64,000 nucleotides of DNA, taken from positions 26,228,001 through 26,292,000 of the forward strand of contig CM052816.1 in assembly GCA_028534125.1 (NCBI GenBank). The letters run 5' to 3'. The notes below the pieces were generated by a model. It worked only from the letters and a program-made list of their open reading frames with translations. It searched no databases and was not told where the DNA came from. Numbering within the stretch: position 1 is the first letter of the stretch; every line of letters begins with the position of its first letter. The stretch comes from Lama glama (taxonomy: Eukaryota). The position numbers and the translations under genes were made by a program. This document shows positions 16,501-63,834 of the stretch, piece by piece.

Positions 16501-17958
16501 TCTCCACAGTGTGCCCACACTGCTCTGCAGCTCAATGGTGAGCTTGTTGCCATAGTTACCAGGGACTCTGATGACGTTGGCCCATCCTTTTCAACAGGGG
16601 CACCAGGTCCCCTTTGAACCACAGGCAAATCCTATGCCCCTGCATGAGCCACATGTTTCTTAACCAAGTTATTACTAAATACTGATTGCCAGAGTCAGTC
16701 TTGGGCAAAGTGAGGAAGGCAGTTCTCTTCTTGTTATGGCCTAGGTCCCACCTGACGGTGATGTTACCTTGAGTCTGGGACTCTTTCAGTTTCTTACGAT
16801 AGTTGGCTTCCAGGTTGACCAGAGGGCCAAATATCTCCTGGTACTGGTAAGAGTCCTCATGCCAGGTTCATGTGCTGGGGCCCCTTGTCCACCACTGGCT
16901 TCTCCAGGTCCTCCAAGGTGGTGGAAGGATTTTCATTCTAGAGCTGCTCCAGCTGGCTCATCTACTTGCTAGTAATCTGCGAGCTCACAGGTGTTCCTGC
17001 TCAGAGGGCATGATGACCAAGCAGGACAGGAAGCAGTGGTCCTGGATCAGGTGCTGCCATGTCAGCCATCCCAGTTGACTAACTTAATGCTGCTCTGACT
17101 GGTGTGGGGCTGCCTGCAAAGCAGCCCCACGACCCAGGTGGCTTCGGCAGGAATGAAGCCGAGGAAGGAGGCCCTGACGCAGCCGCAGTTGTAACACTCC
17201 TGGACCTTTTCCTCCACAGCCCATGCTATGCAGAGTCGCCTTTTTGCATTTTGCTCTCAGAGGTGATTTACGATGTGGCCGGTAGAAGCATTAACGTGAC
17301 CTATAGAACCACTTCTTGCTGGTATCACAGTAAACCGTGCAAGCCAGATACTATATTCCTCACTAACTGCAGGCTTGTATGGGGAGATCCTTCCTGTAAC
17401 AGGTATTGTCTTCATCCTCTTTGAAGTTTAACTCTCCGGACAATTGGCTGCTCTTGGCCACGCCCACAGCCTCATGCGGTTCTGCAGCGTGGTGCGGAAG
17501 CGCCCACCTGCGATTCCAGCTATCCTCCTGCAGCGCCCACACAAACCCGGCCTCCAGAGCTGCCCCCTCCAGGGGCACTGGTGGCGTAGGGAGTGTCTGT
17601 CCGGCCAGGGAGGATGACCTCAGTAAATTCGAACTTGGGGCCCTGCAAATCAAAGCCCAGCAGATCCGCCTCCTTCGAGTGCAGGAAGGTGCGCATGCGC
17701 GAGCTGAGCACGTATGCCTCCAGGCTCGTGGTTCCGCCTCCTCACAGCTCGTGAGCCTCTCGGTGGGCGGAGATGTAGATTCAGCATCTTCGCCTGTGCC
17801 TTTCCTCCCCCAGGCCAGAGCTCAAAGGCCGCTGCTGCGGAAGGTTGTCGGCCTGGTCTTGAGCCACTTTGCCTGGGGCCACACACTCAGGGCTGTCCTT
17901 GCTGCCCTCGTGGCCACCCGTCGCGTCGCTCACGACACCAGCAGGAACCGCCGTCTCC
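13501..17958 (-). pseudogene. UPF1: Processed pseudogene of UPF1 (regulator of nonsense transcripts 1), full-length ends with an internal deletion
   Basis: Intronless collinear UPF1 peptides across shifting frames: [116 protein letters not shown]. Start codon ATG>ACG at 17729-17727; stops and frameshifts; Walker A GPPGTGKT>GPPGTQKM (16257-16234). GC-rich 5'UTR 17730-17958; 3'UTR ~15054-13510; AATAAA at 13529-13524; A tail 13508-13501. Confidence 0.97.
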
Positions 17959-17968
17959 TGCTGTAAGT
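17400..17968. promoter_or_regulatory. CpG-island-like segment at retrocopy 5' end with NRF1 palindrome and GC box
   Basis: About 35 CpG in 560 bp by hand count; TGCGCATGCGCG at 17690-17701; GGGCGG at 17765-17770. Confidence 0.45.
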
Positions 17969-18839
17969 ACGTTGCTTTAATTTTACTTATTCTGGGGGAT
18001 GTGAGGTGGCCTCCATTGAATTCCTGATTTAAGATACTGGTTTTTTTAGTTTTAGAATTTCTACTTTATTCTTTTGATATAAATTCCAGTTTTCTGGTTG
18101 ATTTCTCCCTCTTGTAATCTGTTACCACAGTTATTTTAAAGGCTTTTTCTGAAAACCAGTATCTGAATCACCTAGGCCTGAGTTTGGCTGCCTTTTTGCC
18201 CCTTTTAGTTTTCTGCCTTTTACTTTTTAGTTTTTACCTTTCTGCCTTTTCTGTCTTTCAGTTTGCATACCTGGTAAATTTTTTATTGACTTACTAAAAT
18301 TATGTGTAAAAATTTTCGCGGTTCTTGAAACGTCATCTTTCCCTAGAGAGGAGTTCTTTAGTTTACGGCAAGCAATTAGAGAAGGCATGGATTACTTTAA
18401 TTCAAACGGGTTGAGCTGATTCACAGCTGAGTTCCATTCTTTGTAAAGCTGGTTTATTTCTGGTTTAACCACAACCTTAGACTATAACTTTTGTGGTGTC
18501 CAGTTGAGCCCTTGGGGTTTTTATCAGAACCCCATCCTTCTAGTGGCCCCTTAATCCCATTTTTTAATCTCTCCAGAACCATGAAACTGGCAAAAAATCC
18601 TGAGTGGTTTCTCAAACTCCTAGCAGCTACTTTCTGCCCTGCGTTGTAACTTCTCTGCCAGCTCTACTTACAAATTAGCAAATGCCTCAGGGGGAAACGG
18701 GTTCAAACTACTGGACTCAGTTTTTTGAACTCTTCTCTCTAGAATCTTGGCCTCTTAGGTCCTGGCTGTCTTTATGCCTTTGAACTCTAATTTTAGTCTT
18801 TTTAGGCTCGTGAGATTGCTGAAGTTCTTTAAAAGACTA

Positions 18840-19930
18840 TTGAATGTTTAAAGCAAAACCAATAATAGGTGTGGGATTTGTAGAATATGAAAACATGGCT
18901 AATATACAAGGTCTTGAGTGGGAATTAAATGAAATTATACCATTATATCTTTTTTTGGATTGTTCTTTAAATAGTATAATAGTATTTGAATTGAGACTGT
19001 GTTAAGTGTGTGTATGGCTGTCTGTAGGGTGACCACTACACACACAGTGGACACATACACAGAAAATTATTGCTAAAAGTCAATAAAATACATAAAATTG
19101 AATAATAAGAATTATTCTGCAAGCACAAAAGGCAGTAGAAATAAATGAACAATGAATAAATAACATATGAGACAAATGGAGAATAAATACCAAGATAGTA
19201 GAATTAAACTGATCTGAACAAAACCATAATTCCATTAACTGTAACTGCATTAGATAGAAATTGTAAGAATGTATGAAAAGAGCCATCTGAATGTTGTTTA
19301 TAAGATATTTTTTATAATATCTAAAAGCACAACTAAGTTTGATTTAAGAGTGGAAAAAGATGTATAAAATGAAATAAATCTGTCATGTGACACAGCAATT
19401 CAAATTCTAGGTATTAAGCTAAGAAAATGAAAACATATGTCCATTAAAACTTGTACACAAGAATGTTCATAGCAGACTTTATTCATCATAACCAAAATTT
19501 GAAAACAACCCAAAAGGCCTATTAATCTGAAAATGAATAAAGAAGTAGCATATTTATATTATATACAGTAGAACACAACTTAACAATTAAAAAGTGAAAT
19601 TTTGATTGGTGAAACAACGTGGATAAATCTTAAAAATACGTATTATCTGAGTGAATGTAACTGGGGACAAAGGAGTACTTACACATGACTTCATTTTACA
19701 TGTGTTTCAAAAACAGGGAAATCTGTACCATTGCTAATATAAATTGGAAACTGGTTACCTCTAGGGGAATGCAAACTAACTGAAAAGGAAGAATGAGGAA
19801 AATTTTGGGGGTGAAGAAAATGTTCTATGTATTAATGTGGGTAGTTGTTACAATTGCCAGAATCATTGAACTGTATTCTTAAGATACATGCATTTTATTT
19901 TTCATGATTTATTCTTCAGCAAAAAGAGCA
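18840..19930 (+). mobile_element. Old L1 (L1MC/ME-like) fragments including 3' end
   Basis: 'aaaacttgtacacaagaatgttcatagcag...ttattcatcataaccaaaatttgaaaacaacccaaa' and 3'UTR 'gaaaatgttctatgtatt...attgaactgtattcttaagat'. Confidence 0.75.
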
Positions 19931-20859
19931 TCACTTAAAAACAAATCTGGACTAAGACATTATTTTATTTGTTTCTTTATAACAGAAGATAGTAGGTACA
20001 TACAACTTGTTAAAAAATATTAAAGAAAAATGACTCGAAAGGTAGAGCTGGACTTTTTGCCATCTTATTTAGTGAATCAATTAGTAACGTATAACCACAT
20101 ACGGGATTGAAATCATTGAAAAATACGGTAGATCAATGAATTCCTTCTTCCAATAATATGATGGTTCTCATAGAACTAGTGCATGTCGCATAACGTGTGT
20201 CCAAAATATTTGATAAACAGAGGAAGGAAAGTATTTGAATTTACAGAGTAGAGTGCTTTCTCTTTGAGCCATGTATTGAAACTTAATAAAACATTAAATA
20301 AGGGAGCCATTTACTCCCTTATTTAAAATGATACATATTCACAATTGTATTATAATTTGAACTGAAAGAAAACTTAACTAGAGCCTTTTAGTCAAAAGAA
20401 TTTAAGACAATATTTAAATATTTTAAAGATTTAGGATAAAGATGGACATAATGGATAAACAAATAGGTGTTCGTAGTAGAGAAATGAAAACTAAAAAGAG
20501 GTCAAATGGAAATTTAAAAAGTGAGGTGAAAAACTCACTGGAGGTCATAACAACAGATTGGACAATGAGAAGAGATCATAAATATGCAGATAAATCAGTA
20601 GAAATAAACCAAAGTCCTCAGTGAAAGAAATAAAAAGAGTTGTATTGACCTGTTTATTGTGGGACAGCATAGAATTTGGACATACATGGAATTGGAATTA
20701 GGAGGGGAAAATTGCATTAGAGAAAATTATTTGGAGGAAAAATGATCAAACCTTTTCTAAGTTAAAAAAAATGAATGTTTAGTTGCTTATTGAATGTATA
20801 AGCTCCTTGTGATGTACAAAGTGAACTTTTCTTATCCAGCAAACTGATTTTCCATTTGA

Positions 20860-21200
20860 GAGTTATGATTTTAAGTTTCACTGAGATACAGTTGAAAAAA
20901 GTCAACTACACATATTTAAAGTGTACAGTTTGGTAAGTTTTTACATATGAATATACCCCCCACATTTACTTATTATGCCCATTTATATATAATTCCTCTT
21001 GCTTATCCTCTCCCCAGTCTCCAGACAGCCAGTGATCAGAGTTCTGTCACTAAGTGTTAGTTGGAATTTTCTGGAATTTCTTATAATTGGAATAACACGG
21101 AATGTACTTGTTTTGTGTCTGGTTTTTCTTTGACTCAGCATGATTATTTGGAGGTTCATCCATGTGGTTGTGTCTATCATTAGCTCATTTTCTTTTACTA
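20860..21200 (-). mobile_element. L1MB-like 3' end
   Basis: 'atttaaagtgtacagtttggtaagttttt...ttgactcagcatgattatttggaggttcatccatgtggttg'. Confidence 0.75.
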
Positions 21201-22809
21201 AGTGGTAATATAATTCTCTTCACTGACTATAAAACTCGTAAAACTAAGCTTATGGTGATAGAAAAGTGATTGCCTCAAGCAGAAGGGTGAGGATATTGAT
21301 TGGAATGGGCCCTGAGAGAAGTTTCTGTGGTATAGGAGCTGTTTATAGGGTGTAAGCATTTGTCAAAACCCATTGGACTATATTCTTAAGATATGTGAAT
21401 TTCACTGATTGTAGTTTATACCTCATGAAAAGAAAAGGCAGGGTATGAAAAACAACCAGATATACTGCCCAGTTGCCTTCATAGTTGGTTGATATTACGT
21501 GCTTGAGTCAATGATTTGTTTTTAACGTTTCTGGTTATCTAGAAGTATTACCTTTAGACATATTTTTCAAGCATTTTCCTATGATTTAACTCTTTCGTGA
21601 AGGCAAGTGTACTTTATGATAGCTTTTACCAAAACACTCTACCTAAATCAGTTGTTACTTTCCCTAAGTTGTCTTTATGGAAATAAAATCCATGCCCCAA
21701 ATTGAGTATACCTATGATAATGCCCAATAAATTATATATTAGAATGGCATTGCTAATGTTAAGGCCTCATTTTTATAATTTTTTCTTTGTCAATAAAAAT
21801 AAAATATGCACACCTTATATCAGATAGACTTAAATTTTGTCATAAAAATTGAGACATCATTCAAAGTAATTTGTAAATCAAATAATTTCAGTAAAATAGT
21901 GTATTTTTATTGAATGACAAGTGATTGAAGTCTAGGCATTCATTTATTCATGTAAACATTTATTAACTAGTTCCTGTAAGAGTAGGTGTACAAATTTACA
22001 TGCTTTACCTGTCCCAGGATATCTTTGGTTTTTCAGTACTAGATATTAGCTTATATAGAAAAGTGATCATATTTTTATATGGTTTATTATAAACTTAAAA
22101 TTGGACTGTATATCATTAAGCTGTATTCAGTATTGGAATGTTACTGAGTATATTCAATACTCAATATTGCATGCAGTATTATACTCTATTTTAAGCTAAA
22201 TGTAACGTTAGTAGAGGGTGTTGTATTTATCAGAGCCCACCTCTTATAACTGTCTTTTCTGTTCAGTTGTCTATTTAGTTTAAATACTGTTCATAATGGC
22301 AGAGCAAAAATGTACACGTTAGTATCCAAGTGTCTCTGAAAAATAATTACTCGGGCAGATACACAAATCTGTAGTGTCCTGGCTTGAATTTGCTTCTGTA
22401 GGATTTGGATCATTATGACTTTCCATTTAGAATCTCAGTACCATAATTATCATTTAATTATACTTTGTCTCCATATTTTTCCTTCTTACCACAAAATTTC
22501 GTTATCTGATGCTCTGATGGGACCTAGAATGGGACTAGGAGCCTCAATGCTGAGCTGTTCGCTACTGGAAACTAATACCACTCTCCTGAAAGGAAAGAGC
22601 TGTTGTTCCTAGAAGTACTTCAGATTATTTGTTTCATCAGGCCTTCTCCTTTCTGTACCCTGACCTCAATTCTGCCTCTCTCCTCCTTTGCTCATCACTC
22701 CAGTTGCTCAGGCCTCCATCTGACCTCAGGGACTGACAAACTAATTCTTATGTTTGGTACTTAGAGCGTTCTTACTCACATCTTTACAAGACTGGTTTAT
22801 TCTTTCTTT

Positions 22810-24075
22810 TCTTCTTTTTTTCCCTTGGTGAAGTATAATTAACTTAAAATATTTTGTTAGTTTCAGGTATACATCATAGCAATTTGATATTTTTATATAA
22901 TTCATATAAGGTTGTTATATAATACTGGCTGTTTTGCTTGTGCTATATATATCTATATGCTGTTTATTTTATACCTAATAGTTTGTGCCTCTTAGTCACC
23001 GTCCCTTGTTTTGCCCCTCCCCCTACCCATCCCTCCTGTGGTAACCGCTAGTTTGTTTTCTGTATCTCTGACTCTTTTATTTGCCCACTTGTTTTATTTT
23101 TTTGGATTCTACATATAAGTGAAAACATTTAGTATTTCTTTTGCTGTCTGACTTACTTTACCAAGCATTAATACCCTCCAAATTCATCCAGGCTGTCAAT
23201 GGCAAAAGTTTATTTGTTGTGGTTGAGTAATACTCCATTGTGTGTGTGTGTGTGTGTGTGTACGTGTGTGTACCCCACATCTTTATCCATTTATCTGTTG
23301 GTAGACACTTAGATTGGTTTCATATCTTGTCTATTGTAAATAACACTGCAGTGAACACTGGGATGCATGTATCTTTTCAAATTAGTGATTTTGTTTTCTT
23401 TGGCTCTATACCCAGGAGTGGAATTGCTGGGCCATATTGTAATTCTGTTTTTAATTTTGGGAGGAACATCCGTACTGTTTTCATAGTGACTGAAACAATT
23501 TACCAACAGTGTAAAGAGAGTTCTCTTTTCTCTACATTCTTGCCAGCACTTGTTATTTCTTGTCTTTTTGATGCTAGCCATTCTGTCAAGTGTGAGGTGA
23601 TAAATCATGGCAGTTTTAATTTGTTGAGCATCTTTTCAGGTGCCTGTTGGCCATCTGTATGTCTTCTTTGGAAAAATGTTCAGATCTTCTGCACATTTTA
23701 CAAATCAGATTGTTGGGTTTTTGCTGTTGAATTTTATGAGCTATTTATATATTTTGGATATTAACCCTTCATTGGTCTTATCATTTACAGATATCTTCTC
23801 TCATTCAGTAGGTTGTCTTTTCCTTTTGTTGATGGTTTCCTTTGCTGTGCAAATGCTTTTAAGTTTGATTAAGGTCCCATTTGTTTATTTTTGCTTTTGT
23901 TTCCCTTGAGGAAACAGATCCAAAAATATATTGCTAAGGCCTATGTCACAGTGTTCTGCCTATGTTCTCTTCTCGAAGTTTTATGGTTTTAGGTCTTACA
24001 TTTAGGTCTTTAAAAACTTTGGAGTTTATTTTTGTATATCATATGAAAATATGTTCTAATTTCATTCTTTTTGTG
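22810..24075 (-). mobile_element. LINE-1 3' portion (ORF2 C-terminus and 3'UTR), with (TG)n at ~23238-23270
   Basis: ORF 23309..23608(-) 'YHLTLDRMASIKKTRNNKCWQ...RTLFTLLVN' is decayed L1 ORF2; T-rich tail ~22800-22820. Confidence 0.9.
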
Positions 24076-24462
24076 TAGCCAAAGAGGTAGTGGATGCTCA
24101 CCTTGAAAGCAGCTGGTCTAGGACCTGTTGGCCTGTGGTGAAGGCCAGATATGTGAAAAGGCAGGTGGTGAAGTAGGAGATGTTTCTACATGGAAAGGCT
24201 GGTACCATGGACCGCAGCAGCCTCTCCATTGTGCCTTTCTGGAGGTCCTACGTCCTTCAGGTATCATTTAGGGTAAAAGGTAACTTCATCTTCATACTGG
24301 ATAGGGCAAGGTGGGACATATAGTCAGTAGCATCACCTTGAATCCCTGGGAGGATTGAGATCTGGAGCTCACCCAGGAGCTCCCAGGCCCTCAGGGATTT
24401 GTGCAAAAGGAGGGGCAGGAGTGCTCACACTGAAGAAAGTCTGGCCTCTAAAAAGTACCATT

Positions 24463-24620
24463 GAGGGAAAGGATATAGCTCAGTGGTAGAGTGCTTAGCG
24501 TGCATGAGGTACTGGGTGCAATCCCGAGTACCTCCGTTAAAGTATAAATAGATAAAAAATAAACCTACTTACCTTCCTCTGGGGAAAAAAAAAGCCAATG
24601 TAAAAAAAATAATTTTTTTT
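24463..24620 (+). mobile_element. tRNA-derived SINE (camelid Vic-1-like)
   Basis: A box 'tagctcagtggtaga', B-box-like 'gggtgcaatccc', A-rich tail; 13-bp TSD AAAAAGTACCATT at 24450-24462 and 24621-24633. Confidence 0.9.
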
Positions 24621-25616
24621 AAAAAGTACCATTAGAGTTTGGTGGTGGTGGTGGGGCAGGATGAGACAGTTGTTACTATGTAGGCATGTTTTTAGTTGAG
24701 GAACAACAGACCTCCCTCTATTAGTTTTTGTTAGGAGCTTTATCCCAGGAGTTCTCAGCAAGCATCCCCATTATAGGGCTGAGAACACAGAGGTTTAGGG
24801 ATGTCAGACAGCTGCTCAAGGACATGCAGGTCAGAACCGAGAACCTTCCAAATCGAGGGCTGCTTGACATTTTCTCAAAGCTACAGCAGCTTGATCTTCC
24901 CCTGACCTGTAGGAAAAGGATCTGGGGAAACTCATTCCTACCCAGTTTGGAGACAGTGTGCAATGCAGACACAGACTATGAAAGCCCTCCTTTCTTCAAA
25001 AAGAGGACACTGATGTTTCTTTTTTTTTTCTTTGCTTTCTTTATTTCTCTCTTTTCTTTTTTTAATATTCAGGGGAGTTTGGGAACCTCATTTTGTAGAT
25101 TTCAGATTTAGCAAAAGGACAAAACACAAAGATACTCATTGCCTAGTGTGAAGTGAAAACAAGTATTTTCTCTGATATCCTTTGAATATGTGCAGAGTGA
25201 CTTTCCACCCTCTGTTGCAGCTGGTTGGGTCTCATGGAGGCCCACATTCCTTTGGGAGTGGGGCTATGGGGCACTCTAATGGGAGAGGCCTGGGAGGACC
25301 CCGGGGAGAGGGGTTTTGAGAGGAGATTCTGTCATACCACAGTCTTTTCGGGTTCTTGGGTGTTAGGACCACTCTGTGACCATACTGGCCTCAGACCTGC
25401 TCTAGTTATTGTTGGTGGCTTGATGCATCTGCTACCTGCCAATAAACTGGAGGAATTAAATCCATTGACCAGCTGCTCACCAGCCTTCTGGGTGGCCAGG
25501 CCGAGAGGAATCACAGGCCTGCTTTGATATTACTGGAGGAGGGGACCCCAACAATAGTAATTGTTGGTGAGGATGTGGCGCATTTGGAATCTTGATACAT
25601 TGCTTGTGGGAAGGAA

Positions 25617-25945
25617 GGATAGCCTCTCAGATAGCTCTGAGGAATTGCTCCAAAGAGGTAGGGAGCAGGTATGGTATGTGAATTTTGGCTAGTAGATACA
25701 TGCAGTCGAAAAAGGTGACTGCTAGTCATGAGGATCAGATAGCTCAGTTTGTGTTTTTAGCGCTTTTCTATGTTTGCGAAGATACAAGAATCTGAGGTCA
25801 TTTTAACTGTCTAGAGACCTATATGTCCAAAACTGTGAATCTATCCTGAATTCCTTTCAAGGTGTACTTGTAGGTCAGCGACTACAGTAGCTCATGACTT
25901 TATCCTTGTAGAACTGGAATGTCGAGCAGCATTCTTTGTTTACCC
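25617..25945 (-). mobile_element. ERV1 LTR fragment (MER41-like, cetartiodactyl type)
   Basis: 'agcctctcagatagctctgaggaattgctccaaagagg' and 'atcctgaattcctttcaaggtg' resemble recalled artiodactyl MER41-type LTRs. Confidence 0.5.
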
Positions 25946-26259
25946 TCAGCAGGGCAGTGTAATCTGAGGATGTGGGGTTTGCTTAGGTTCTAGGTGGTGA
26001 TGTGGAAATTGCACAGATACTCAATTTAGATAGATAGACCCCGGGGTGAATAGCCTTGAGCCACCGAGAGGAAGAAAATATAGGTGGAAACTCTCAGCAT
26101 TTAACACAGAGGTGTGGTGTTCTGGGGGCTCCCTGCCTGCTGTCAGAATCAGCCAAAATCAGGGCCACACGCTGTGGGTTTCCGGGATTTCCCAAATGGA
26201 AAGTTACCCCAAAGAGGGGAGAAACTGCAATTTCACAAGGATTCTCCTGAGCTAAGCCT

Positions 26260-33180: not shown

Positions 33181-33189
33181 GTACACCCT

Positions 33190-33545: not shown

Positions 33546-36500
33546 GAGTTATAGATGGGAAAGAGCAGAATTTCCAAAAATTCCCAAGTCATGCTGGATG
33601 TTCCCCCTCTACCTGCCATGACCCGCCAGGGCCATTTCAAACCCACATTAGCCCTTAAAAATGATAAGGTCAATTCAGCTAAGCCACCCAGTTCTTAAAA
33701 AGAGGCTTTTTAAAAACGAGAGGCTATGCTGATCTGGAAATGTGTATTGATCTTTTAATTTGAACTTATAAATTTAAATTTTATCTCAGTGGAAAGAGAC
33801 TAGAAAAAATTAATGCTTTCTAGCCAGTTTCTGGTGAGTGAGACCAACCAAACTTGAAAACCAATGAAAACAACAGCAGACCAGAAAAGTCAATTATTCC
33901 GTTTGAATTAATTTTGTCCTTTGAGATGGTTACTATTATTATCATCTCCATGTTACAGATGGAGTTTTTCAGTAACTTTAATGGTCACACGTATGTGAAG
34001 TGGTAAAAGTGAGGATTTGACCAGGTAGGTAACTCCTGAGGCCACACTGTTACACCGAATTCTCTTGTAGAAGGTGCTTAATAAATGTTGAACTGAACTG
34101 AAATTGTCGAATTTACCGTGTGCCTTGGCTAGGAAGAAAACAGGCCTTTTGTATTACGAAAAATAAACGGCAACCCAAGATTCTAAGAAGTAGCCATAGT
34201 CACAGTTCCTCCTTTCTCTGGAGGATGTGATTACCTTAAGATAAATCCCAGTGTGCAGAATTACTTTACTGTCATCAGCATATACAATTAAATATTTATT
34301 AGGCAAATTAATGTATTTAAATTTGTTTAAAATTAAGCTGACCACTAATAGCTCTGCTCATCAGTTAAGACATTATATGTTATTCTACAGCTTAAGAACG
34401 TTTTAATGGCTGATAAAATTGCTCCCTAGATTCTAGCAGCTTTCAGATTTTGAAATTACAGCTGAAGATACTCTTAATCATTCCTAAATTACCAACTACT
34501 CACTGTTCACCTCTAAATTGTCTAATTGATCCTTCCATTTGAGGAAAATAATAAATAGAACTTCCCGAGAGATAAATTATTTACAGGGTAGGTATACCTT
34601 ATACAGTTGTGAATACTTTGAAGACACAGTTGGCTGTAGAATGGAAAACAATTTGAATATAACAAAGTCTGTGTATTTAGCTAAGTTGGAGGGAAAGGAC
34701 CAAGAAAATTTCACTATCGTAGAGCTGATTAAAATAATGGTATTGAATTCAAGTGTTTCCCTGTATAAATTGATGTTTATCAAGTTTCTAAACTATGTGT
34801 ATCTATTTCCATTTTCTTAATGTATCTTTTTAGGGACAGATGTTTAATTATGCATTCCTACCACTAAAATGTGGTAGGGCCTTTGAACAGATCTCTGATC
34901 ACTTGGAGATTAAGCATCAGTTAAGACTTTTTATCCAGACTCAAATTATTCCATCAAATACTTCCCAGCTCTGAGTCAAAATGGAAGAATTGTAAAAAAA
35001 CAAAACAAAACAAAACAAAAAAAAACCACACACACACAAAAAAGAAGACAGTGATTGTAAAAAGATGTTATGGTCTCTGTATACACATATAAAGGAATAT
35101 ATAATATATTCCAAACCCTCAGCTGGAGAGGATGCTACTCTTGGATCATGCTTTTCCAGTACATTTAAATATACCAACACCACTGTGTCGTTGGCATGAG
35201 CTGAGCTTCCAGCCTGGGAAGAGCCACACTGAACTTGGAGTAACTCTGATATCCCCTTTTGGGGATATTTCTGGAAATTAGAAAAATCAGATAAAATATA
35301 CACTATTTTATCTGGCTAACTGTATTTACTCTGAAAATTCTGTGATCGTTATTATAACTTTTAAATTCAGTTGAACATTTTGAAATGCCAGTTCTGTGCA
35401 AAGTTCTGTGCTTTGTGCCGTGGATGATACAATGATCAGCAGACGTGAACCTTGTCTTTAGGACTTTAATCAGCGGGGATAGAGAGGGAAAACCTTAATC
35501 ATAAAAGGTGTATGTGCTATAAAAGAGGTGAAAAGTCTATTAGGAATAAAGCAGAGGCAGAGAGCAATTCTTCTGATTAAGTGATGGAGCTATGGCTTCA
35601 GGAAAATAGCTGCATTTGGAGTAGACAGATTTTGATGTGAAAAGAGGTAGCGATGAGGACTTCCCATGAATAGGACATCTTTTCATATGAATTCCAAAAC
35701 CTCCTAGTGATGAGGAGAGGGCACTAAGTATATAGATTAATAAGAGTCTAGACCCTTGTAGCAGGCTCATATACCAGCAGTTTCTGTTTGTTTGACCTTA
35801 ATTCCAACATATACTATTTGACTTCTTTCTGTGACTTCTTTAAATCGTTGTAAATGCACTTTGTGTGACTTGGCTTACCAATGTCTCTAAGCCTACAGAA
35901 AATGGAGGTGAAGTACTTAGTAAATATCACACAGAAGCAACCTGCCATTCTGAACTCACAGTTAGGCATTATTCTCCTCCCGAGGCTTGGCTTGCCATTC
36001 CTTGCAGGCATGATTCAATAAGGCAGAGGCAACTTACTGTTTCGTTGTGAGCACCATATGAGTGGCTAGAATTGGAGTCTCGCAGCGTGAGACCCTCACA
36101 CCTTGACACCTGAGCTGGGTACCGTCCAAGCTCCTGAATCCAGGGTTATTCCCTTCCCGCTCACCACCTCTTTGCCCCTAACTGGCTGTGGTATTGTTAG
36201 TGAGTCAGAGGTGTCGGAAGTGGAACCCACTGTGACACTGAAAAGAAGACACTTTGACCCTGTCCACTTTCTCCTTGTGCTGAAGGTGTGCTCCACTTAA
36301 AATGGTGTGTTTTATTTCAGCTGTTTGTGAAACATGGTGTTTGCCTAGTTGCAGCATTTACACCATCTCTTGCTTAGCCTGGGGATCCCAACATTTATAT
36401 CAAACCTACAGTTGCTAATTTACAACTGCGAATACCCGTTAGTTTGTTACAGTGCTAATTTAATTTAATTTCTTATGAATGAGAAATTCTGAGGTACAGG

Positions 36501-47409: not shown

Positions 47410-47441
47410 CATATATGTGTGTGTGTGTGTGTATATTTAAA

Positions 47442-47485
<44 letters not shown>

Positions 47486-47490
47486 TATAA
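47410..47490. repeat. Compound (TG)n/(TA)n microsatellite
   Basis: Direct reading. Confidence 0.95.
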
Positions 47491-48592: not shown

Positions 48593-48662
48593 TTCTTCTT
48601 CTTCTTCTTCTTCTTCTTCTTCTTCTTCTTCTTCTTCTTCTTCTTCTTTTTTTTTTTTTTTT
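48593..48662 (+). repeat. (TTC)18 followed by T16
   Basis: Uninterrupted TTC x18 at 48593-48646, T run 48647-48662, inside a decayed L1 ORF1-like fragment (~48490-48830). Confidence 0.95.
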
Positions 48663-50150: not shown

Positions 50151-53118
50151 CACCTTTTTTTTTGAAGCAAAGATAACAATGCAACTTTCCCATCTTTACA
50201 CAGGAAATGCTACTTCTCAAGTTAACTGCAGTAGCCCAGTGCAATAAAGAATTCATAACAATAGCTGTGGTGCTGAACATTACCCTTCTAATCATAGATT
50301 TTATTGGAAGCCATATACCTTTTAGAGTCGGCATTTCATTTGCCTCCTTTGCCTTGTAGAAAGCCTGCCACTGTGACAACGAGTAGGAGTAAAGCTAGCG
50401 GTCTTTTCCAAATTCTTTCTTAGACGCAGAGCAAGAAAGAAAGAGAGAAAAATCACACCGATGTTTCTAGCCATTTGTGTTAAAATACAAAGCAAACAAA
50501 ACAAGGCACATTCAAAAATGGTGTGCTGGGCAGCCTCCATTAATATTTATCTTGGCATTAATATTGATAAGGAAGTACTTTGTAGCTGGGCTCTGTTGCC
50601 TCCCCCAGTGTCCTCCAGCTCTGTGTTCTCCGCCCTGGTGGCCATTAGCTCCCTCTCCCTCTGTACCCAGAGCTTCCGAGAGGCTTGGCAGGCCTCCAGC
50701 TCACTTATGCTTAAATGGACACTCAGGCTCCCACGGACACACAGCTAAATAGAGGCCAATAATTCAATACAGTATGACTGTACTGGGGCTGCTAGTAAAT
50801 CCATCAAGCAGTAAATATCATCTGAAGCCAATGCAAGCTTTTATCTTTCCAATTTTTTTGTATGTCTGAGCGAAGCCCAGGCATTCAGCGAATCATGTAA
50901 TTTATTCTGCGGTGCTGAGTCTGGGCTGTCTCAGGCATCATATTGACTTTTTTTTTTCCATCTGTCAGGGGCAGTCAGCGGCTCTGCTGTTGTGGGAGCG
51001 CATCGCATTACATCTCTTTATTTATTTATTTCTGCTGAGGCTTTGTAGAATGATTGGGCAAGAACGCATTATCTCAGATCAACGAATACTAAGAAAAGCA
51101 TCTGAACATCATTACGACAGCATGTTAAACATTTGTCCTACCCAGTTTGTTAAATCAGCAAATGTATTTCCAGCAAATGCTGGTAATTGTTCATAAAGGG
51201 CTCCCTACTGCAGGGTTTTATTAAGCTGAAAATATGGCCTGTTATTTTCTTCAGCTCTTTAGGTCAGTGGTGATGCCTATATATTGTAAATAGTGCTGAA
51301 CAGCTGCTGTATCATCTTGTTCTGGTGTCTCTGTGTCTGCACACAGACACACACCTCCTCGCTCTATCTCTGAACGTTGTACACATATTTTGTGCACATG
51401 TGTATGTCCATATGATATAAAGTACTGTGTATCTACTTAGCAAAGTTAATAACATGATTAGGTTAATAATCAGGTTATGGTATCCAATGGTTAGAAAATA
51501 TCTTGCCTTCCAGTCAGTCAAAATTTAGACTGGGAGCAAATGGATTTGGGTTACTCTTGCTGTACTACTGAAAACTTCAAAAGTATGAACCCTACATTTG
51601 AATGTTATTTTGAGCTCTCTCAGTCTTCCTTCTGTGTAACCTACAAACTGAACAGAGAAGCGGGAGGAAGACGACTGTCCCCAGAGTCCTTCACAGTGGG
51701 ATCTGAGACTGCTAAGGGCAGACATACCCAGTGGTGCATAGCATGGCTGGATGATGAGACCCTAAGTTCAGCCTGCTTCCCCGCTAAGGCATCCCCCTAA
51801 ATCCCCAGCCCTTCCTCTAAAGCTGATTATTCTGCTTCTGAGACTCAGCTGGACTCTCAGTTAATTCAGTTTGGATTTGATTAGTGTCTGACTCTGGGAG
51901 CGCACATCAGAGAAAAGTATTTTGAAAGTAAGTGTCTTGATCTTCTTTAAGTAAATAAACATGGATTATAAATGTACTTCCTAGAAGCATCAATGCAGAA
52001 TGCACAAATGGAGCAGTGCCTTAGAATCAGCCATGGTGTTTGCCCAACTTCTCCTTAAAAATGTTTTTTAAAAAGAGATCAGACCTTTTTATATGCCTAT
52101 AAGTGAGGCGATTCATTTTTATAAAAGAGGAAGAATCAACATAGTTTTGAGAACCTGGTTCCTCCATATGTATGATTAGATTTTTAAAACATAACGTCCC
52201 ATTCCTTTGGAAGGCTTTGTGCTCTTTGAAAAAAATGTGTTGGTTGTACTTGAAAGAAAATATCTCCCCCTGGACTGATGGTGAAAAACGACTTTGTGTT
52301 TCAAACTGCGTTATTAGTGTCACTACCTCAGAAAATATCAAATTGGTTTCTCCTGCCACATCTGACCAGGAGAATCTAGGTAAATGTGAGTCTCGTTCTG
52401 AGACTGGATAAAGTCTTTGCTCACACTCTTGGCTGTACAGTTAGCTACATCCTTCTCTTGTACATGACAGAGAGCGTCAATGCATATGTTTACTTCGACT
52501 TCATTAACCTCCAGTTAGAAAGTCCTGCACAGTACTTGCTGCTCTAAGTATTCCAAAGAGCAGCCACACTGTCTTTCTAAAGAAACACATTAAAAGGCAA
52601 CTCACTGAGCCATTTTCTAACACCTGAGAGCAATTAACGTAAGCAGAGACAGGAAACATCATCAATTATTTAAAATAAAATGAATATGTAATGCTGACCT
52701 TCTCCAACTGACATCAGTTTTATACTTACACCTGAATAAACTCAAGGGAACACAAAACCCACAAGGCACTACACACTGCAGTTTGCAGTAAGGCCGGCGG
52801 TGGTCACAGGGAGAGCTGCCTGGCCGGCTGCATTCAGCACAGAGAGGGCGGTGTGGGAGTCCAGGGCACCTGATGAGGGTGGGTGGGCCTCTGGCTCCAT
52901 GAATGCCTCGTGGGCACCCGGGACTAGCAGCTTCATGTACAAGCTCTCTAGCTTTACAGTTTCTTTATTTTATATTCCCACCATCTTAAGGGGAGGGCTA
53001 ATATTTCTGTTATTACATAGTTCTGAATATATGTGTGTCTATACATATATATATATATATATTCTATTATTTTTATTTGCTCACATGAGGTCATTAGTCT
53101 TTTTCTTTTCTTCTACAG

Positions 53119-53150
53119 TTAGCCTCTGTCTTGGAGGAAAATAAGAAGTG
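53119..53150 (+). other. Candidate 32-nt internal exon (LASVLEENKK + TG)
   Basis: Strong acceptor 'ttttcttttcttctacag' and donor 'GTG|gtaaat'; open in phase 0. Confidence 0.3.
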
Positions 53151-55789: not shown

Positions 55790-56320
55790 GTCTATGTATA
55801 AAGTTCTGAGTTGAAGAATTTTAGGTATTGCTTTAGATTGTAAGCTCCATCCCTGTATAGAAGTATTCCCAAGGAGTGGAGAGCATGCGTAGAAAGAATG
55901 TGAAAGTGGGTAGTGCGGTGTATTGGAAGGACTGAAAGGAAGCCATGTGGGATAGAGGGTCTTAAACAGACTGAGGACAGAGCCTTGAGCAATTGGCAAT
56001 GTTGAAATTTTGCAAAGCCCACACCAGACTTAATACCAGTGGGAAACTATTGAAAGGATTTCAAGCCTAGGCTGGAAAGAAGGCACCCATGTTGATAGGA
56101 GTTCATCATGGATTGAATACGGGGATGAAGGAGAGAGAGAGATCTCAGGGAAATCTCAGATTTCTGCTTGATTGGCTCTGTGTGTGGTGTCTTTATGTGA
56201 TACAATAGAAAACTGGAAGCAGGATCAAAGAAAGATCCTGCCTTTGGTTTTGGATGTGATAGATAGCTTTGGAGTATCCAAGCAGAGATGCCGGGGGAGT
56301 AGTTTGAAAATTCTAAATAA
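55790..56320 (-). mobile_element. L2 LINE fragment
   Basis: 'attgctttagattgtaagctcca' and 'gattgaatacgggg...tctcagatttctgcttg...tttggttttggatgtg'. Confidence 0.55.
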
Positions 56321-56543
56321 AGCCTATCAATCCCCATAACACACAGAGTGACACGTCATGTACCCTGCCAGGCTGATTAAAAAATTCACCAAAAGACAAA
56401 AACCTTAATATTTGACCAATAGTTTGGGTGCTTTCAAATTCATATCAGGTCCTCTTTCAAATAGCTCTTTTGAACTTTGTTAATATATAGGTCTGTCCTT
56501 TCCCTCCCTGCTGAATTTGATCATACTCCTCAACTTGAGTATC

Positions 56544-56704
56544 ATATGTCCATGAATGACTGAAAAATTGTGCTGAACACTGGAATTTGACACAACATTG
56601 TAAAATGATTACAAATCAATAAAAAATGTTAAAAAAAAATAAAAATACACAATATACATGGAAAAAATAGAAACAAAAACAAAAACAAACAAACAAAAAA
56701 AAAA
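56544..56704 (+). mobile_element. Very short 3' end of the same young L1 family as 6980-8231, with composite A tail
   Basis: 56544-56632 is the near-exact reverse complement of ~6984-7072. Confidence 0.9.
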
Positions 56705-58079
56705 CCTGTCTTCCCTTGCTTACCTCAAACATTTTTCAGAGAGTATTGATTTTACCTGATAAAAAGAGAGCCTGTCATTTTGAAGAAACTGAAGTGTGAT
56801 AGTCATAGGACTTTTCGCTGGTGAAGATCTCTCTTTATTAAATTTAGATTTAAATGCTAAGTCTCACCTTATTTTTGCACAATAAACAAATTAGGTCTGA
56901 AGCTCAAAAGAGACATAAAATTTTAATCTATGTATAGATGTGGCTATGGATGAAATTGCATAAGAAAATAGACTAGCCTATTAAGAAGGATGCTCCTCTT
57001 AGTTTTCTACCAACAACTTTTAACCCGTACTGTTTAAACATGCCGGTCATTGCATATCGATTAGACATAATATTTTATTCTAGTTATTGGCACCACTTGA
57101 TGCTAGTTTAATGGCCTTCAGTGGGGAAGAGGAAGTATACAGATGCCACAGCCACCACTGAATCTTTTTAAATGAGGGGTTTACGCTAGTATCCGCAAGA
57201 GTCTTAATTTCATACAATATGACAACTGCTAACAAATTTTAAGAATTGACTGCTAAAATTCTCTCTTTTCCTCTCTGCTGAAACCTTTTTAAAATAGAAA
57301 CATAGAGCATGGATAATCTGAAAATTAGATAATCCATTACAGGGTAATCAAGAGGTGACTGTATAAGCAAATATTAAGGATTTTATACATCATTACCCAT
57401 CAAAACTCTTACTCTTTGAGCTTTTCAATATATGCACTCTCTTCTGTACACATACTCACAGGAAGTTGAAGGCTCCCATGAGAAGCCATAAACTACTTTT
57501 TGCAGAAGCAAACAGAGAAAGCCTCATTGGTCACAGGGAGCTGGTTCTTTATGAGTGGAGGCTAAAGGCATCAAAAGAACCATTGCTGTAAAGAGTAGTG
57601 ATCACCTCTGCCTAAAGTAAACCAAGTTTACGATACATTTATTATTGGGCCTGGATTGTAGAATTGGGTTTACTGAAAACTGTGAGTTAGATCCTTTCAC
57701 ACTATTTCTGTACTTGTATTTTCATCTGTCAAATAATGGATTTATTTGAAAGACCTCTAAAGACCCTTTCAATCTGTATATTCTCCAAATACTCAAATAT
57801 GGAGGGTACTTGGAACACTCGATAGACCAGCTGATACTGTGGACCAGCCTACCTGTCCTCCTGCACCCTCATGTCTAATCGCCTTTCTGCTTAAACATTT
57901 CCATAGCCGGTAGCTGAATTGGCCTGTTATATCCCTAACTAACCATGTTCGCAGTCTTTTTGGTTGATGTTAATTTCCATCTTAGAAGATGAATAGGATG
58001 AATGGCCAAGTTAGCCATAGTCACTGTTGTTCTGATTACTTGACCTAGCCCAGAATCATCTTTTTTATTCTTCTTTCTA

Positions 58080-58640
58080 GCCTCATTCTTTCCATACTGC
58101 CTCAGTTATTTTTCTAACCCAAATATTACTACTGTACTCAAAACCTTTAATTAGCATTTCAACTTGGGAAAAGAAAAGGAAAACCTCCTTAGCCTGCTGT
58201 TCTAGGCCTTTCACTGTCAAATTCCAAAGTACTTTGAAAGTTTCTGACACCCTTGACCTTAGGAACCCTTGTGGACAGACTATCACGATTCCCAGAAAAA
58301 GGCTCTTAGCTGTGTGTTTTGTCAGCCCCACTTGGAGTGTTCTTCTGCTTGTGTCCTACAAGCAAAACTGCTTATTCTTGCAGGTTCTCCTCAAACGTTG
58401 CCTCCTCTGTGAGCTTTTCCTTACTCACCCTGAAGAATTATTTTCCCTGTCTGCCAGTGGCTATCACTTACTTCACATGTTCATCCCTCTTGTCCATTGG
58501 TTGTCACATTCTCAGATGTCTTATATTTTATAGTGCTGTGACTGTCTCTTCTGGTGGAAAATGAGCTCTTTGGAGACAGGATTGATGTCTTATTCATCTT
58601 GAACCTTCAGCACCTAAAACAGGGCTCACTAAAAGCAAAT
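58080..58640 (+). mobile_element. L2 LINE fragment
   Basis: 'tgagctctttggagacaggattgatgtcttattcatc...cagcacctaaaacagggc'. Confidence 0.6.
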
Positions 58641-58829
58641 GTATTAAATTAGTTCAGGCTCCTAAAAGAGCACTTGAAGATAGGGCTGGAGTTTGAGTCT
58701 CATTTATGGTAGAACTGGACAGTGAATCTTTCTTGGGGTTTTCACTGACTGTTATTTTGGGGAAGTTATTTGTTGCTAAAGCTTGGTTTTATCATCTAGA
58801 AAATGATCTCAAGATAGTGATTGTTGCTG

Positions 58830-59160
58830 TTCACTGATTTCCTTATTCTCCTCTAATTCTGTGAGTATGATTGCATTTATTAGCTCTTGTATAGTTAAGG
58901 GGAATCATGTGACTCATTCTGGATAATAATTTGTGAAAGGAAGGGGTATGTATTGTTTCCCATGCACGCATTTAATTCCTCGTGAAAAACTGAAAGCTTT
59001 CTCTTCCTTCTGTCAGAGCAACTGGGAGCATTCACGATGGTGGCTGCTTCGTCAGTCTAGGACCCTGAGTAACTAAGATAAAAACTACTCTCTGTGATCC
59101 ACAGTGCACAAGCAGCAGGAGCAAGAAATAAATTTCTGCTTTTTTTAAACCACAGAAATC
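58830..59160 (+). mobile_element. Old MLT1-type LTR relic
   Basis: 'agttaaggggaatcatgtgactcattctgg', 'gatggtggctgcttcgtcagtctagg', 'gagcaagaaataaatttctg'. Confidence 0.55.
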
Positions 59161-59789
59161 GAGTGCATGGGGAATCAGCCTGGTAGAGATCCCTTAGTTA
59201 AGGAATGGTCCCCTTCTCCCATATCATCCTGAGCAGCTCCTGCCATGAGACTCACAGTGTGGGAAGGATACATGCATGGGTACATGTTCTTGGTTGGCTT
59301 TTCTCCATGGTTTTCCTGGACCATCTGTAGCTACATCATCTGGGAAGGTTATCAAAAATCCAGATTCCAGGGCTCCAACCCGTTCTAATAAATCAAATTC
59401 TTAGAAAGTCTGGCCAGAGAATCTGTATTTTCAGTAAGCCCTCTCAGTGCTATTATGGATTTCATGAGGAACCATGTATCTCTCTGGCTGCTTTGAATTA
59501 AATGAAAATATCAGCTCCTGGAGGGGAAGGGCCTTCTTTATCTTGTTCACGTCCTATTCCAGCATCCAGCACAGGGCTTGGCATGTGGTTGCTAGGTAAT
59601 TAATACATATTCATTGAATATAGGTGGAAAGAAGATCATAATTCCTGCCCCACCTATCTCAGGGGCATTCTGTGAGGGTAAAATGACATAATGAGTGTGA
59701 AATTGCTTTGTGTGCAGGAAAGGAATACTCCATCACACCAAACTAGACAGTAACTATCCCTTTAACAGCATTTACATTTAAACCCATAA

Positions 59790-59965
59790 TGGCTGACCTA
59801 CAGCTGAGACTCACCGGGAGGGCTTGTTGAAACCCAGAATTCTGGGCACCATCTACAGAGTTTCTGAGTCAGTAGGTTTGGGATTGGGCCTGAGAATCTA
59901 CATTTTAAGCAAGTTCCAGGTGTTCCTAATAGTCTTGCTCTGGGCCATGGTTGAAAGCTGTTACA
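59790..59965. mobile_element. MER5A-like hAT-Charlie element (a second relic at ~59320-59475)
   Basis: 'cagagtttctgagtcagtaggtttgggattgggcctgagaatctacattttaagcaagttccaggtg'. Confidence 0.75.
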
Positions 59966-60986
59966 CTGGAGCTACATATAGATCCAGAAATGTTGACTCC
60001 AGGGCTCTGTTATTGATATTTTCTTCTATTTTACTACCATTCTTGCATTTATGAACATACTCATTTTTTATGATATTCCTTTCTTAATTTATTTTTGATT
60101 ATAGATTATGAATATATGGAGAGCCTGGAAAGTCAGTGCCAACCACAGTTAGACACTTCTCATTACTATTTTAGAGTTAAAAAATGGATTTCTTTCCTCA
60201 TGGAATCCTTACAGGTGAACTATTTTGAAAGATTTTTAAAATTTTATTTTTGGAAGTTGAAAGGAAGAATCATCACTGGGAAGAAATTTCTAATCAGAAT
60301 TTTTAGCTATATTTGTTATACCTGATCTGCCAGGTGCATCTATCCTGTCATAAGATGCCTTCAGCTTAGGTGTGTTTCGTTCCCTTTATTTCCTCTCTGT
60401 GTGCTAAGCATGGGAATGTTCTGTGTTCTGTGAGTTTGAGGAGACATTAATAGTGTGGAGCTATTTTTATAAAATTTGGAAATTCTCCTTGAATCCTAAA
60501 CCCTGAAATAGTTAAAGCAGGATTTGTTTCATGTTTTCTCTTTTCCTAAGTGAAACAAATAAAGCGCTATTAAATGAATGATTTACATGTTGACAAAATG
60601 AATACACAGCTGGAGACAAAAATCCAAGATGACTCTTCCAAATTTAGTACTTATTAGTGGGCCTTTGTTTCTCACAAATGTCAGTGAACTTATGTTAGAT
60701 TCCACTTCCAGTTCCAAATAGAGGCTCTGGTCTTCTTTCCAGTGACTGTCAAAGAGACTTCAGTGTCTGTACGAGTTATATCTGTCTCCTAATACATCCA
60801 CGTTAGATCTGACCTTTATTGTTTGTAAGTTATAATGAGTGTATGCACACTTCAGATCGAATTTCTGTTGCTCTATTTAATGAAATCAAATTGTGCTAAA
60901 ATATCAAACACATCATTTTACCCCCCTGCCCCCTAAAAAACCCCTAAGGACAGTTATTTTCTTTAATGCTTTCCAACAGTATACTG

Positions 60987-61112
60987 TTACTCAGTATTGG
61001 ACAGCAACCTTCTGAAATAGAAGCTATTCTGCTCTTGTGTCCTGAGCCATTACTCACTAATGGACAGCAACCCTCAAATATAGAAGCCATTCCAATCTTC
61101 TGCCCTCACACT
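60987..61112 (+). repeat. Diverged 63-bp tandem duplication inside a candidate terminal exon (60980-61169)
   Basis: Units 60987-61049 and 61050-61112; 47/63 identical, no indels; LLSIGQQPSEIEAILLLCPEP / LLTNGQQPSNIEAIPIFCPHT. Confidence 0.85.
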
Positions 61113-63834
61113 GATACCCAGAAGCCCTTAGGGGTGCCAAGAGAAGACCCACAGAATTTTCCCATTTAAAAGAAACTATAAACATGTTTCATCATAAGTG
61201 AAGGCATTAAAACTCACCTTTATAAGGTGTTTTAAGGGAAAACATTTTGATCAAATAAAACTGGAAGTACAGGAATTGAAAAAGTTAAACTTTTAAAAAT
61301 GTATTTGTTTTCTCAAGTGAATAATTATTAATTCATATTTCCTGAATGTCAGCTGTTGCCCCCAAAATCCATTTTTAAAGTTAAAACTTTAATAAGTCTA
61401 TAATATTTTTGACCATAGTTTCTTCCAAATTAAGGGATAAAATGAAGTTTTAAGAAGGTAAAATATGAAAAGAATATTATTGATTTATAGTTGATGTGTT
61501 CGAATCCAAAAGTATGATTAATGTTAATAGCAATTTGAAAAATTTTCATCAGCAGAACTAAATTTATTCTCAACATATTTTGTATAATTGTATGTTTTGT
61601 ATAATTTGTATAATTAAATATTTGTATAATTTTGTATACATACAAAAAACGGAAAAAGAAAATGTTCTCTCTTACCTTCTTAATCCTTGTTTTCAAGTGT
61701 CCAATTGGAGACAGCTCAAAACAAGGCAAATAAAAGAAACCAGTGCAACAATGGTAACAACAAAATAACATCAGTAAACAATGACTGGTAACAAACCTTA
61801 GATGTTATTAACAACACTAGTTCAGATGTTTGGAAAGAAAATGAAAAAGCATAGAAATACAAATGAGTTAAGCATCACAGAAGAAAGACTCTTAAAGTCC
61901 ATACCATACCTTTTGTTAAATGTGTGAGTGGGAGTGTCATTATCATGGTAAGACCAGGATCATTGACTCTCTAAAGACAATGCTATTGAATGTTACCAGA
62001 GGCATTGTCATAGTAGTAGTCACCCAGGTTAGAAAGATCCCTACCGGAGATACTGCACTATTAGGACTGCATTTAGCTGCAAGTAACCAAATCCCCTACT
62101 TAGAAGCTTAAACATGTCAGAGTTGTGTGTCATGTGACATGATATCTAAGGGAAAATAGCCCAGGTGTGGGTCGCTGGCCTAAGGGTGCAGTCAGAGCAC
62201 TAGGCTTCTAACTTCCAACTCAGTCATCCTCAACTTGGGGCTTCTGTCCTCATAGATGCAAGATGGCTGCTCCACTCACAGGCATTGACTCTTTGTTCCA
62301 GGCAGGAAGAAAGAGAAAGGATGAGAAAGAGAAAAAAAAAAAAAGTGTCATCTAGGATGAGTTTTCCTTTCTGTTTGAGAAGGAGCATCCACCCTGGGGC
62401 TTCTGCAGATAGTTACTGGGCAGGACTGTGACTCCTGGCCACCCCTGGTTGCAGTGGCTATGGGAAGGTGATTTTGTCAGTCTTGGAGCCTGCCCAGTAG
62501 AGGAAGACAAGGGAAAAGGGAGTCATGACTGGCTTTTGATGAACTAATCCATGATGTGCACTGCAATGGCACTGTTAGGGCAACTACTGGAAGAACTTTT
62601 ACTGGAGATAATCCTGCTCCCTGAAGACTTCTCCCCGTGGCACCCCTGCCTGGGAACTTTTTGTTAAAGCACATTTGTTGAAGATACCTTGGTAAATGAC
62701 AGGTTTTCTGGGGGAGATCTCTGCTAGAGATCTTGTAAGGATACTTTTGCTTAGATTCTTTTGCCATTGTCCTACCAGAAACTGTTAGGGCAGTTGAATT
62801 AAACACACATACATTTACCTAGAGCTCCCAGGGACAAACATTAATTCTCAGAGACACCGCAGCCTGAACTCCTTCAGTGAACAAGGTGATTCTCCATACA
62901 TTGGAGTCGGTACTTCACATAATTATGGAGAGCAATCTTTTTTCTTTTCTTTCCTTTCCTTCCTTTCATATTGTTACACTAAAGGCCTGCCAGGCATAAG
63001 AAAGGGACCCACAGCTAAGCCAACTCCCCATTAATGACCTCTCCTTCAAATACACAAAAACCCAGTCAAAGCTTCGAGATTACTGTTAATAAGTATTTGA
63101 TTAAATCTTTAGCCAAGGGTCCTCCAACTCCTTGATTCCTGTCTGGGGGAGGTGCGTTTTTATTCCCCAAATTACATCATATTCCCCCAGTAATATATAT
63201 AATTGCCTATCCTGCTGAGTGAGGCTGCATTACACATGAGCTGAGAGTAGTCTCTGGCTGATCTCATTCAAATCTGGTAGTGATATTTGCTAACTTTTTG
63301 ACTGCCCCACATCTTCCTTTTTGAGAGGATGGCATAATGTGCGAGCCTTAGTAGAGTTCACGACTCTGCCTTCAGCAAAAGGGAACTGGAATTCTGGGAT
63401 AACATTCAAAATGCTAACAACCCATATAACACAGGCACCACCAAGCAGAATCAACCGTGACTGTACATTGCACCGGTGTTGACTGGCAGGAGTCCAGCGT
63501 AGGGCAGGGTCTCTCCCTTCTCCCACCTAAGGCAGCTGGAACGTGAGTATATGACTTTGGTCAGACAGCTAGGTCCTCTAGCCCAGAACTTTCTGTTTTG
63601 AGCTAGTGATAAAAAGGCAGAGGGCTAGTTCAAATTAATCTGAGTAGTAGTGTCCAATGGGAACAGTGTCCTGTGATCCTGTGATCCTGTGGCTGTGGTG
63701 GGTTTTTTTTTCCTGTAAATAACCTGTTTATTTTTTCTAAAAAGCCACAATAGAAAATGATTAGTATGTAACTATGTAACAATATTTATATCCATTACAA
63801 TCTTCAAATTCATATTTTAAAAAGTTTAAGTGTT

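Follow-up and report, generated by a model that had tools for sequence, protein, structure and literature searches.

A predicted antisense RNA, probably non-coding, read through a decayed UPF1 retrocopy in a llama genome

Introduction

Can a processed pseudogene whose own reading frame is dead still supply exons, and perhaps a promoter, to an RNA read from its opposite strand? The question is raised by a stretch of 64,000 nucleotides (nt) of Lama glama DNA (assembly GCA_028534125.1, contig CM052816.1, positions 26,228,001 to 26,292,000, forward strand), which is called the window throughout and whose minus strand carries a decayed retrocopy of UPF1. In a preliminary description of the window, a hypothetical chimeric gene was proposed, in which a first exon antisense to the retrocopy was spliced in frame to two distant exons. 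A promoter donated by the retrocopy was suggested, and the RNA was expected to be antisense to the 5' end of UPF1.

Retrogenes may inherit the CpG-rich 5' ends of their parents as promoters, and chimeric retrogenes recruit nearby exons. The computational analysis reported here keeps part of the original proposal. An antisense long non-coding RNA (lncRNA) probably runs along the plus strand through the retrocopy, leaves it at the donor 17962/17963 and continues into distant exons, named C, D and E below; its open reading frame (ORF) would be a by-product. This reading was built from sequence comparison. Among the titles and abstract openings that a literature search returned, no paper on a UPF1 retrocopy was found.

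Results

An alpaca gene model uses the antisense donor

Plus-strand frame b is open over 17400-17963 (188 codons). A search of 1.84 billion cluster representatives with this ORF gave one protein match (E=3.6e-112, 98% identity). The matched protein was XP_072815028.1, 'uncharacterized protein [Vicugna pacos]', a RefSeq prediction of 298 amino acids (aa). Its five coding pieces, called exons A to E (Table 1), map in order to one strand of contig C1, in the same genome as the window. Residues 230-298 had no match inside the window; they are encoded on the same strand of C1, 63, 143 and 169 kb downstream of exon B. The ORF is intact in this genome, with 298 aa and five differences from alpaca (293/298 identical). 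XP_072815028.1 is therefore treated here as an orthologous model, with the same exon order, strand and donor 17962/17963, although it is a prediction made in another genome.

The codon at the junction of exons B and C is split as CT/G, and read-through past the exon B donor meets a TAA at 17964-17966. XP_072815028.1 can therefore arise only by splicing at 17962/17963. This is the very site that had been chosen in the preliminary description. Splice sites were scored with an approximate matrix, and all site scores and ranks given here are to be read accordingly. Exons C, D and E all have canonical splice sites, and those of exon C (acceptor 10.19, donor 12.01) and the donor of exon D (12.60) are near consensus. 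Exon B scored 0.71 at its acceptor and 6.15 at its donor. Exon A scored 1.61 at its acceptor and -0.31 at its weak donor, GAC/GTTGGC. In exon B, frame b corresponds to the codon-aligned antisense frame of UPF1 and contains no ATG. Because the exon A donor and the exon B acceptor are weak and exon B has no ATG in this frame, exon A may be an ab initio addition that gave the model a start codon, and not a transcribed exon.

The UPF1 retrocopy is a decayed processed pseudogene

That the minus strand carries a UPF1 retrocopy had been recognized in the preliminary description, and a domain match and the intronless array of parental exons bear this out. Twelve distinct blocks of the window align at 68-82% identity to successive exons of the parent, which lies on contig C11, and the introns are missing. 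Abutting blocks (e.g. 15054-15204, 15202-15355, 15351-15520 and 15518-15573) each correspond to a separate parental exon. Window 15573-16775 was left out of the parent comparison, since that part of the parent locus was not included. The match to UPF1_1B_dom (E=1.7e-7, 31.5 bits) is above the Pfam cut-off of 28.5, and a match to AAA_12 (21.3 bits) is under its cut-off of 27. From low to high coordinates, the minus-strand element consists of a T-run from 13501, which is the poly(A) remnant, the 3' untranslated region (UTR), a broken coding sequence (CDS) and the 5'UTR. The motif tttatt, the complement of AATAAA, was read directly in the sequence near 13526-13531, adjoining the T-run. UPF1-like peptides are dispersed across all three minus-strand frames; that is, the reading frame is disabled. 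Divergence and neutral rates suggest that the insertion may be far older than the camelids.

The 12-nt sequences flanking the element agree at 9/12 positions, and a target-site duplication (13489-13500 and 17959-17970) is plausible but weak. As had been described, the left copy reads ATAAGT (13493-13498) and the right copy GTAAGT (17963-17968). Local alignment of the retrocopy 5'UTR with that of the parent did not extend the homology beyond the start codon. Global alignment gave a modest signal, with a score of 131 compared with 111.9 +/- 6.5 for shuffled sequences and a shuffle maximum of 132. A collinear exact match of 13 nt to the parental 5'UTR was found, and weak homology reaches at least 17953. 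Since this homology is collinear to 17953, the GT of the donor lies in the flank and not in UPF1-derived sequence. The UPF1 start codon itself has been lost (plus-strand CAT to CGT; 17714-17738 compared with parent L022:1719-1743). Twenty bases from it stands ATG 17714, where the parent has CGTACG and the window CGTATG, consistent with CpG decay.

A CpG-rich 5' end as candidate promoter

CpG-island criteria (length of at least 200, GC of at least 0.5, CpG observed/expected of at least 0.6) were applied to sliding 200-nt windows (n=6380). Only 33 of the 6380 passed. All lie in 17121-18060, and 17400-17962 is the sole segment of this kind in the 64 kb. The observed/expected ratio is 0.65 in 17400-17962 versus 0.18 in the body of the retrocopy. 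CpGs of the parent have remained CpG at 7/31 positions in the 5' end versus 4/90 in the body (Fisher p=0.006). Such retention is consistent with a segment long shielded from methylation, as a promoter active in the germ line would be, and is not proof of it. A promoter donated by the retrocopy, as first proposed, is thus plausible by island criteria and by CpG retention, the start site being inferred, and the CpG-rich 5' end would be the likeliest promoter.

The following transcription unit can be proposed. The minus strand carries, at about 13.5-18.0 kb, an old processed pseudogene of UPF1, whose plus strand, in the alpaca lineage, would supply exons to a spliced transcription unit of about 170 kb, with the CpG-rich end of the retrocopy as the presumed promoter. 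The main exon, antisense to the 5'UTR and the N-terminal codons of UPF1, would be 17403-17962 or a shorter form that begins within this interval. It would end at the GTAAGT donor on the boundary between pseudogene and flank, and would then be joined to the three small exons C, D and E beyond the window.

Sequencing runs and the standing of the alpaca model

A run search with 17450-18250 listed 24 runs, of which 18 hold part of this stretch. Eight of these are recorded as RNA: seven, from two studies, have a share of 0.29 (76 words were sampled), and the eighth has 0.13. The seven runs are small (178-937 million letters) and hold the same 22/76 words. Four runs of unrecorded type, under one organism label, have word shares of 0.92-0.96 and are presumably DNA. 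Lower shares, 0.07-0.18 in five runs, were given no weight. The share of 0.29 equally fits an overlap of 513 nt with exon B in which a few per cent of positions have diverged, and it was not used to place exon ends.

Several points weigh against the proposed unit. A word share of 0.29 is what an identical piece of about 250 nt would give, but a longer piece from a relative with slight divergence, or unspliced or contaminating DNA, would fit equally well. Protein searches found no Logan-derived ORF fragment of exon B, which is a weak negative. XP_ records are computational predictions. The sites of the intron between exons A and B are weak in this genome and, should exon A be genuine, exon B would lie inside the transcript and the main promoter would not be the CpG island. 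Lastly, that the RNA is non-coding is judged from no more than five substitutions and a lack of homology.

Most of these points (the predicted nature of XP_ models, the ambiguous word share, the weak exon A/B sites and the lack of ORF fragments among run contigs) also favour another explanation, in which the alpaca model is an annotation artefact with no stable spliced transcript and the words in the RNA runs stem from unspliced background, from genomic DNA or from the sequence of a relative. We regard this as possible but unlikely. A gene finder would hardly string three exons of 68-75 nt over 170 kb without transcript evidence, and the sites at exons C and D are near consensus. Moreover, random carry-over of DNA would hardly assemble the same 22 words in seven small RNA runs from two studies.

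Coding potential

The 298-codon ORF is intact in alpaca and in this genome and is annotated as coding by RefSeq, as would be expected of a lineage-specific gene born de novo from the antisense strand of the retrocopy. Frame a offers such a gene a second product: starting at ATG 17714, it meets no stop in exons C and D and continues into E (136 aa). The origin of the longer ORF argues otherwise. In a codon-aligned antisense frame, only rare sense codons can give rise to stops. At the corresponding place in parent UPF1, the antisense frame runs for 153 aa without a stop, and 229 of the 298 codons of the alpaca ORF belong to this UPF1 antisense frame, which is intrinsically open. Of the three 3' exons, C is single copy in the genome and the other two derive from repeats. 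Exon D falls in an old interspersed repeat (C1:26389206-26389486); a first look gave 201 candidates, and the 39 copies elsewhere that were scored are 69-89% identical. Exon E falls in another stretch of old interspersed repeat (C1:26414647-26414967) with 835 candidates, the 39 scored copies elsewhere being 68-74% identical.

Homologues of XP_072815028.1 were searched at near lengths, where the protein itself was the only match among 6551 candidates, and at shorter lengths, where none of 315 candidates was significant; the protein matched no Pfam family. As a measure of distance between the genomes, nine candidate ORFs from five olfactory-receptor genes were looked up. One was an exact match, to alpaca OR51J1 (317/317 residues), a protein that differs at 15/317 between alpaca and dromedary. 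The genome of the window thus stands very near that of alpaca, and 5 changes in 298 residues, against 0 in 317 in the receptor, look fast and unconstrained. The start codons are no better placed. ATG 17714 has a weak Kozak context, as the preliminary description had noted, with three upstream ATGs ahead of it in exon B, and the RefSeq start hangs on the weak intron between exons A and B.

A de novo coding gene, with either the 298-aa or the 136-aa product, is on balance very unlikely. The specific scenario in which the CpG-rich 5' end of the retrocopy (18-32% diverged) acts as an unmethylated promoter of a 170-kb unit, which then yields a de novo 136-aa protein from ATG 17714, is likewise very unlikely. 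The alpaca ORF looks like a by-product of a stop-poor antisense frame and repeat-derived 3' exons, and the RNA would most likely be a non-coding, lineage-restricted lncRNA.

ORFs resembling antisense UPF1 were also met on short Logan contigs, as weak matches to frame b. Three of them (P0002, P0003 and P0005, from contigs of 900-3300 nt) have ORFs of 134-255 aa that resemble the antisense frame of the UPF1 N-terminus. They look like a recurring gene-calling artefact on GC-rich mRNAs.

Complementarity to UPF1 mRNA

An RNA containing exon B had been expected to be antisense to the 5' end of UPF1. Aligned over 244 nt with the antisense of the parent's first exon, exon B shows an identity of 68%, and its exact matches to the parent do not exceed 13 nt. 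Duplex-based regulation of UPF1 is unlikely given these two values, which show no extended complementarity to its mRNA.

The three-exon chain first proposed

The preliminary description joined ATG 17714 to two exons within the window, and what it reported of the sequence is correct. The frame from ATG 17714-17716 has 83 codons and reaches GCT/GTAAGT (17962/17963) in phase 0. Piece 53119-53150, of 32 nt, lies between an acceptor rich in pyrimidines (ending in ctacag) and the donor GTAAAT. The piece 60980-61169 is preceded by ccaacag, ends in TAA and is followed by AATAAA at 61254-61259. When the three pieces were joined by script, 249+32+190 = 471 nt were obtained, with one 156-aa ORF and a single terminal stop.

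The sites were then ranked against all others on the plus strand of the window. Among 3622 GTs, donor 17963 ranks 145 and donor 53151 ranks 185. Among 4196 AGs, acceptor 60980 ranks 229 and acceptor 53119 ranks 2, the latter being the sole outstanding site of the chain. Rival chains were counted with exon 1 fixed, with thresholds set at the weakest sites that the proposed chain uses and with a poly(A) signal at most 500 nt from the stop. Downstream of exon 1 there are 172 candidate internal exons, 24 of them open in phase 0. From these, 1048 chains of three exons that include the poly(A) signal can be built; 990 encode at least 100 aa, and 157 chains other than the proposed one reach at least 156 aa. 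Two-exon chains under the same thresholds number 80 (four of at least 156 aa). An in-frame chain of 156 aa is therefore expected by chance, and the idea that the combination goes beyond chance fails. The ORF of exon 1 sits in sequence of 65% GC with several frames open.

The downstream exons and the reading frame also differ from those of the alpaca model, the sole annotated product that uses donor 17962/17963. Exon 53119-53150 falls within the 63-kb intron of that model, and in the model's frame it would insert a TAG at once. The peptide search that had been suggested was run for the frame of exon 1 alone (90-aa ORF); it gave eight candidates, none of them significant, among relatives of 49-158 aa in 5.8 billion proteins. 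The exon 1 and exon 3 peptides matched no Pfam family.

The gene as first written (17714-17962 joined to 53119-53150 and 60980-61169, 156 aa) can be set aside almost entirely, since 157 chains are as good or better, acceptor 60980 is weak, the exon 1 peptide has no homologue and the annotated product goes elsewhere in another frame, despite correct sites and phases, the high rank of acceptor 53119 and the single-copy state of both downstream pieces. Its exons 2 and 3 and the 156-aa ORF are chance splice-like combinations inside the first long intron. The observation behind the proposal is thus partly confirmed, every coordinate, phase and motif being right and the chain yet being at chance level. 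Its interpretation is partly supported. A chimeric antisense RNA keeps its donor and its antisense exon, both present in the predicted alpaca model, and loses its partner exons, its frame and its 156-aa ORF.

Other features of the window

A run of 500 N, either an assembly gap or letters not shown, occupies 7174-7673, and the long ORFs around 7008-7924 are artefacts of it. On the minus strand, a 124-aa open frame (34944-35315) resembles 7tm_3 weakly (E=6e-4; 19.9 bits against a cut-off of 33.5) and has one weak second copy on contig C17 (61% over 39 aa). Possibly a class-C receptor pseudogene has left a remnant here. On the plus strand, 50377-50745 gave a weak Mitoguardin match (E=0.003; 17 bits against a cut-off of 25). 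When 50300-52500 was searched as DNA, no further copy turned up in the genome, and the match is probably spurious or very old. Microsatellites were seen at 48593-48648, a perfect (TTC)18.7, and at 47445-47489, (AT)22. An Rfam scan of the whole window returned 0 families.

Table 1. Coordinates of the features discussed (window positions, except where contig C1 is given)
Feature	Position	Strand	Remarks
Exon A, residues 1-42	16450-16575	+	ATG 16450; 42/42 identical to alpaca; antisense to UPF1 CDS
Exon B, residues 43-229	17403-17962	+	184/187 identical; antisense to UPF1 5'UTR and first ~110 codons
Exon C	C1:26309004-26309072 (window-equivalent 81.0 kb)	+	22/22 identical
Exon D	C1:26389313-26389380 (window-equivalent 161.3 kb)	+	22/23 identical
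Exon E	C1 from 26414721 (window-equivalent 186.7 kb)	+	about 23/24 identical; stop 26414792-26414794
Decayed UPF1 processed pseudogene	13501-17958 (approx.)	-	domain match, parental-exon alignment, poly(A) remnant
Left candidate target-site duplication copy	13489-13500		ATAAGT at 13493-13498; 9/12 equal to right copy
Right candidate target-site duplication copy	17959-17970		holds donor GTAAGT 17963-17968
CpG-island-like segment	17400-17962		GC 0.62, 35 CpGs, observed/expected 0.65
Exon 1 of the first proposal	17714-17962	+	83 codons; subset of exon B, in another frame than the alpaca model
Exon 2 of the first proposal	53119-53150	+	strong acceptor, moderate donor; single copy; no match to alpaca protein
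Terminal exon 3 of the first proposal	60980-61169	+	weak acceptor; single copy; no match to alpaca protein; AATAAA 61254-61259

Discussion

The antisense unit proposed here can be set beside two kinds of known loci. With retrogenes that use CpG promoters, and with chimeric retrogenes, it shares a CpG-rich 5' end as a possible promoter and exons taken from outside the retrocopy. The difference is in the reading direction. Retrogenes are read in sense and usually keep the parental ORF, whereas the UPF1 retrocopy would be read backwards and its parental ORF is destroyed.

The second kind is closer, and the best reading of the locus is that it is a further case of the known antisense lncRNAs derived from retrocopies. 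In a human survey (PMC7290577), 256 lncRNAs with retrocopy-derived sequence are given, 180 of them on the opposite strand. As in the opposite-strand cases described there, a dead retrocopy would give exons to a spliced and apparently non-coding antisense RNA. The camelid case differs from them in being annotated as protein-coding, and its retrocopy is too diverged for the regulation in trans by antisense pairing that has been proposed for some of the human cases. The PTENP1 antisense RNA and the Oct4-pseudogene-5 antisense lncRNA, also mentioned in that text (PMC7290577), are likewise antisense transcripts from processed pseudogene loci. They are described there as acting on the parent by complementarity, whereas here the complementarity is poor.

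No new mechanism is opened by this locus, since hundreds of antisense retrocopy lncRNAs are catalogued in human (PMC7290577). Its interest lies in the retention of a CpG island, in a start codon (17714) that looks like a product of CpG decay and in a donor inside a putative target-site copy. A dead retrocopy may be reused backwards, its GC-rich 5' end giving both a CpG island and, on the antisense strand, a long frame free of stops. The consensus splice donor depends on one base of a flanking target-site copy (G, where the other copy has A). For the camelids, a RefSeq 'uncharacterized protein' would be largely explained as a by-product, which would be useful for the curation of camelid annotation and of lists of de novo genes.

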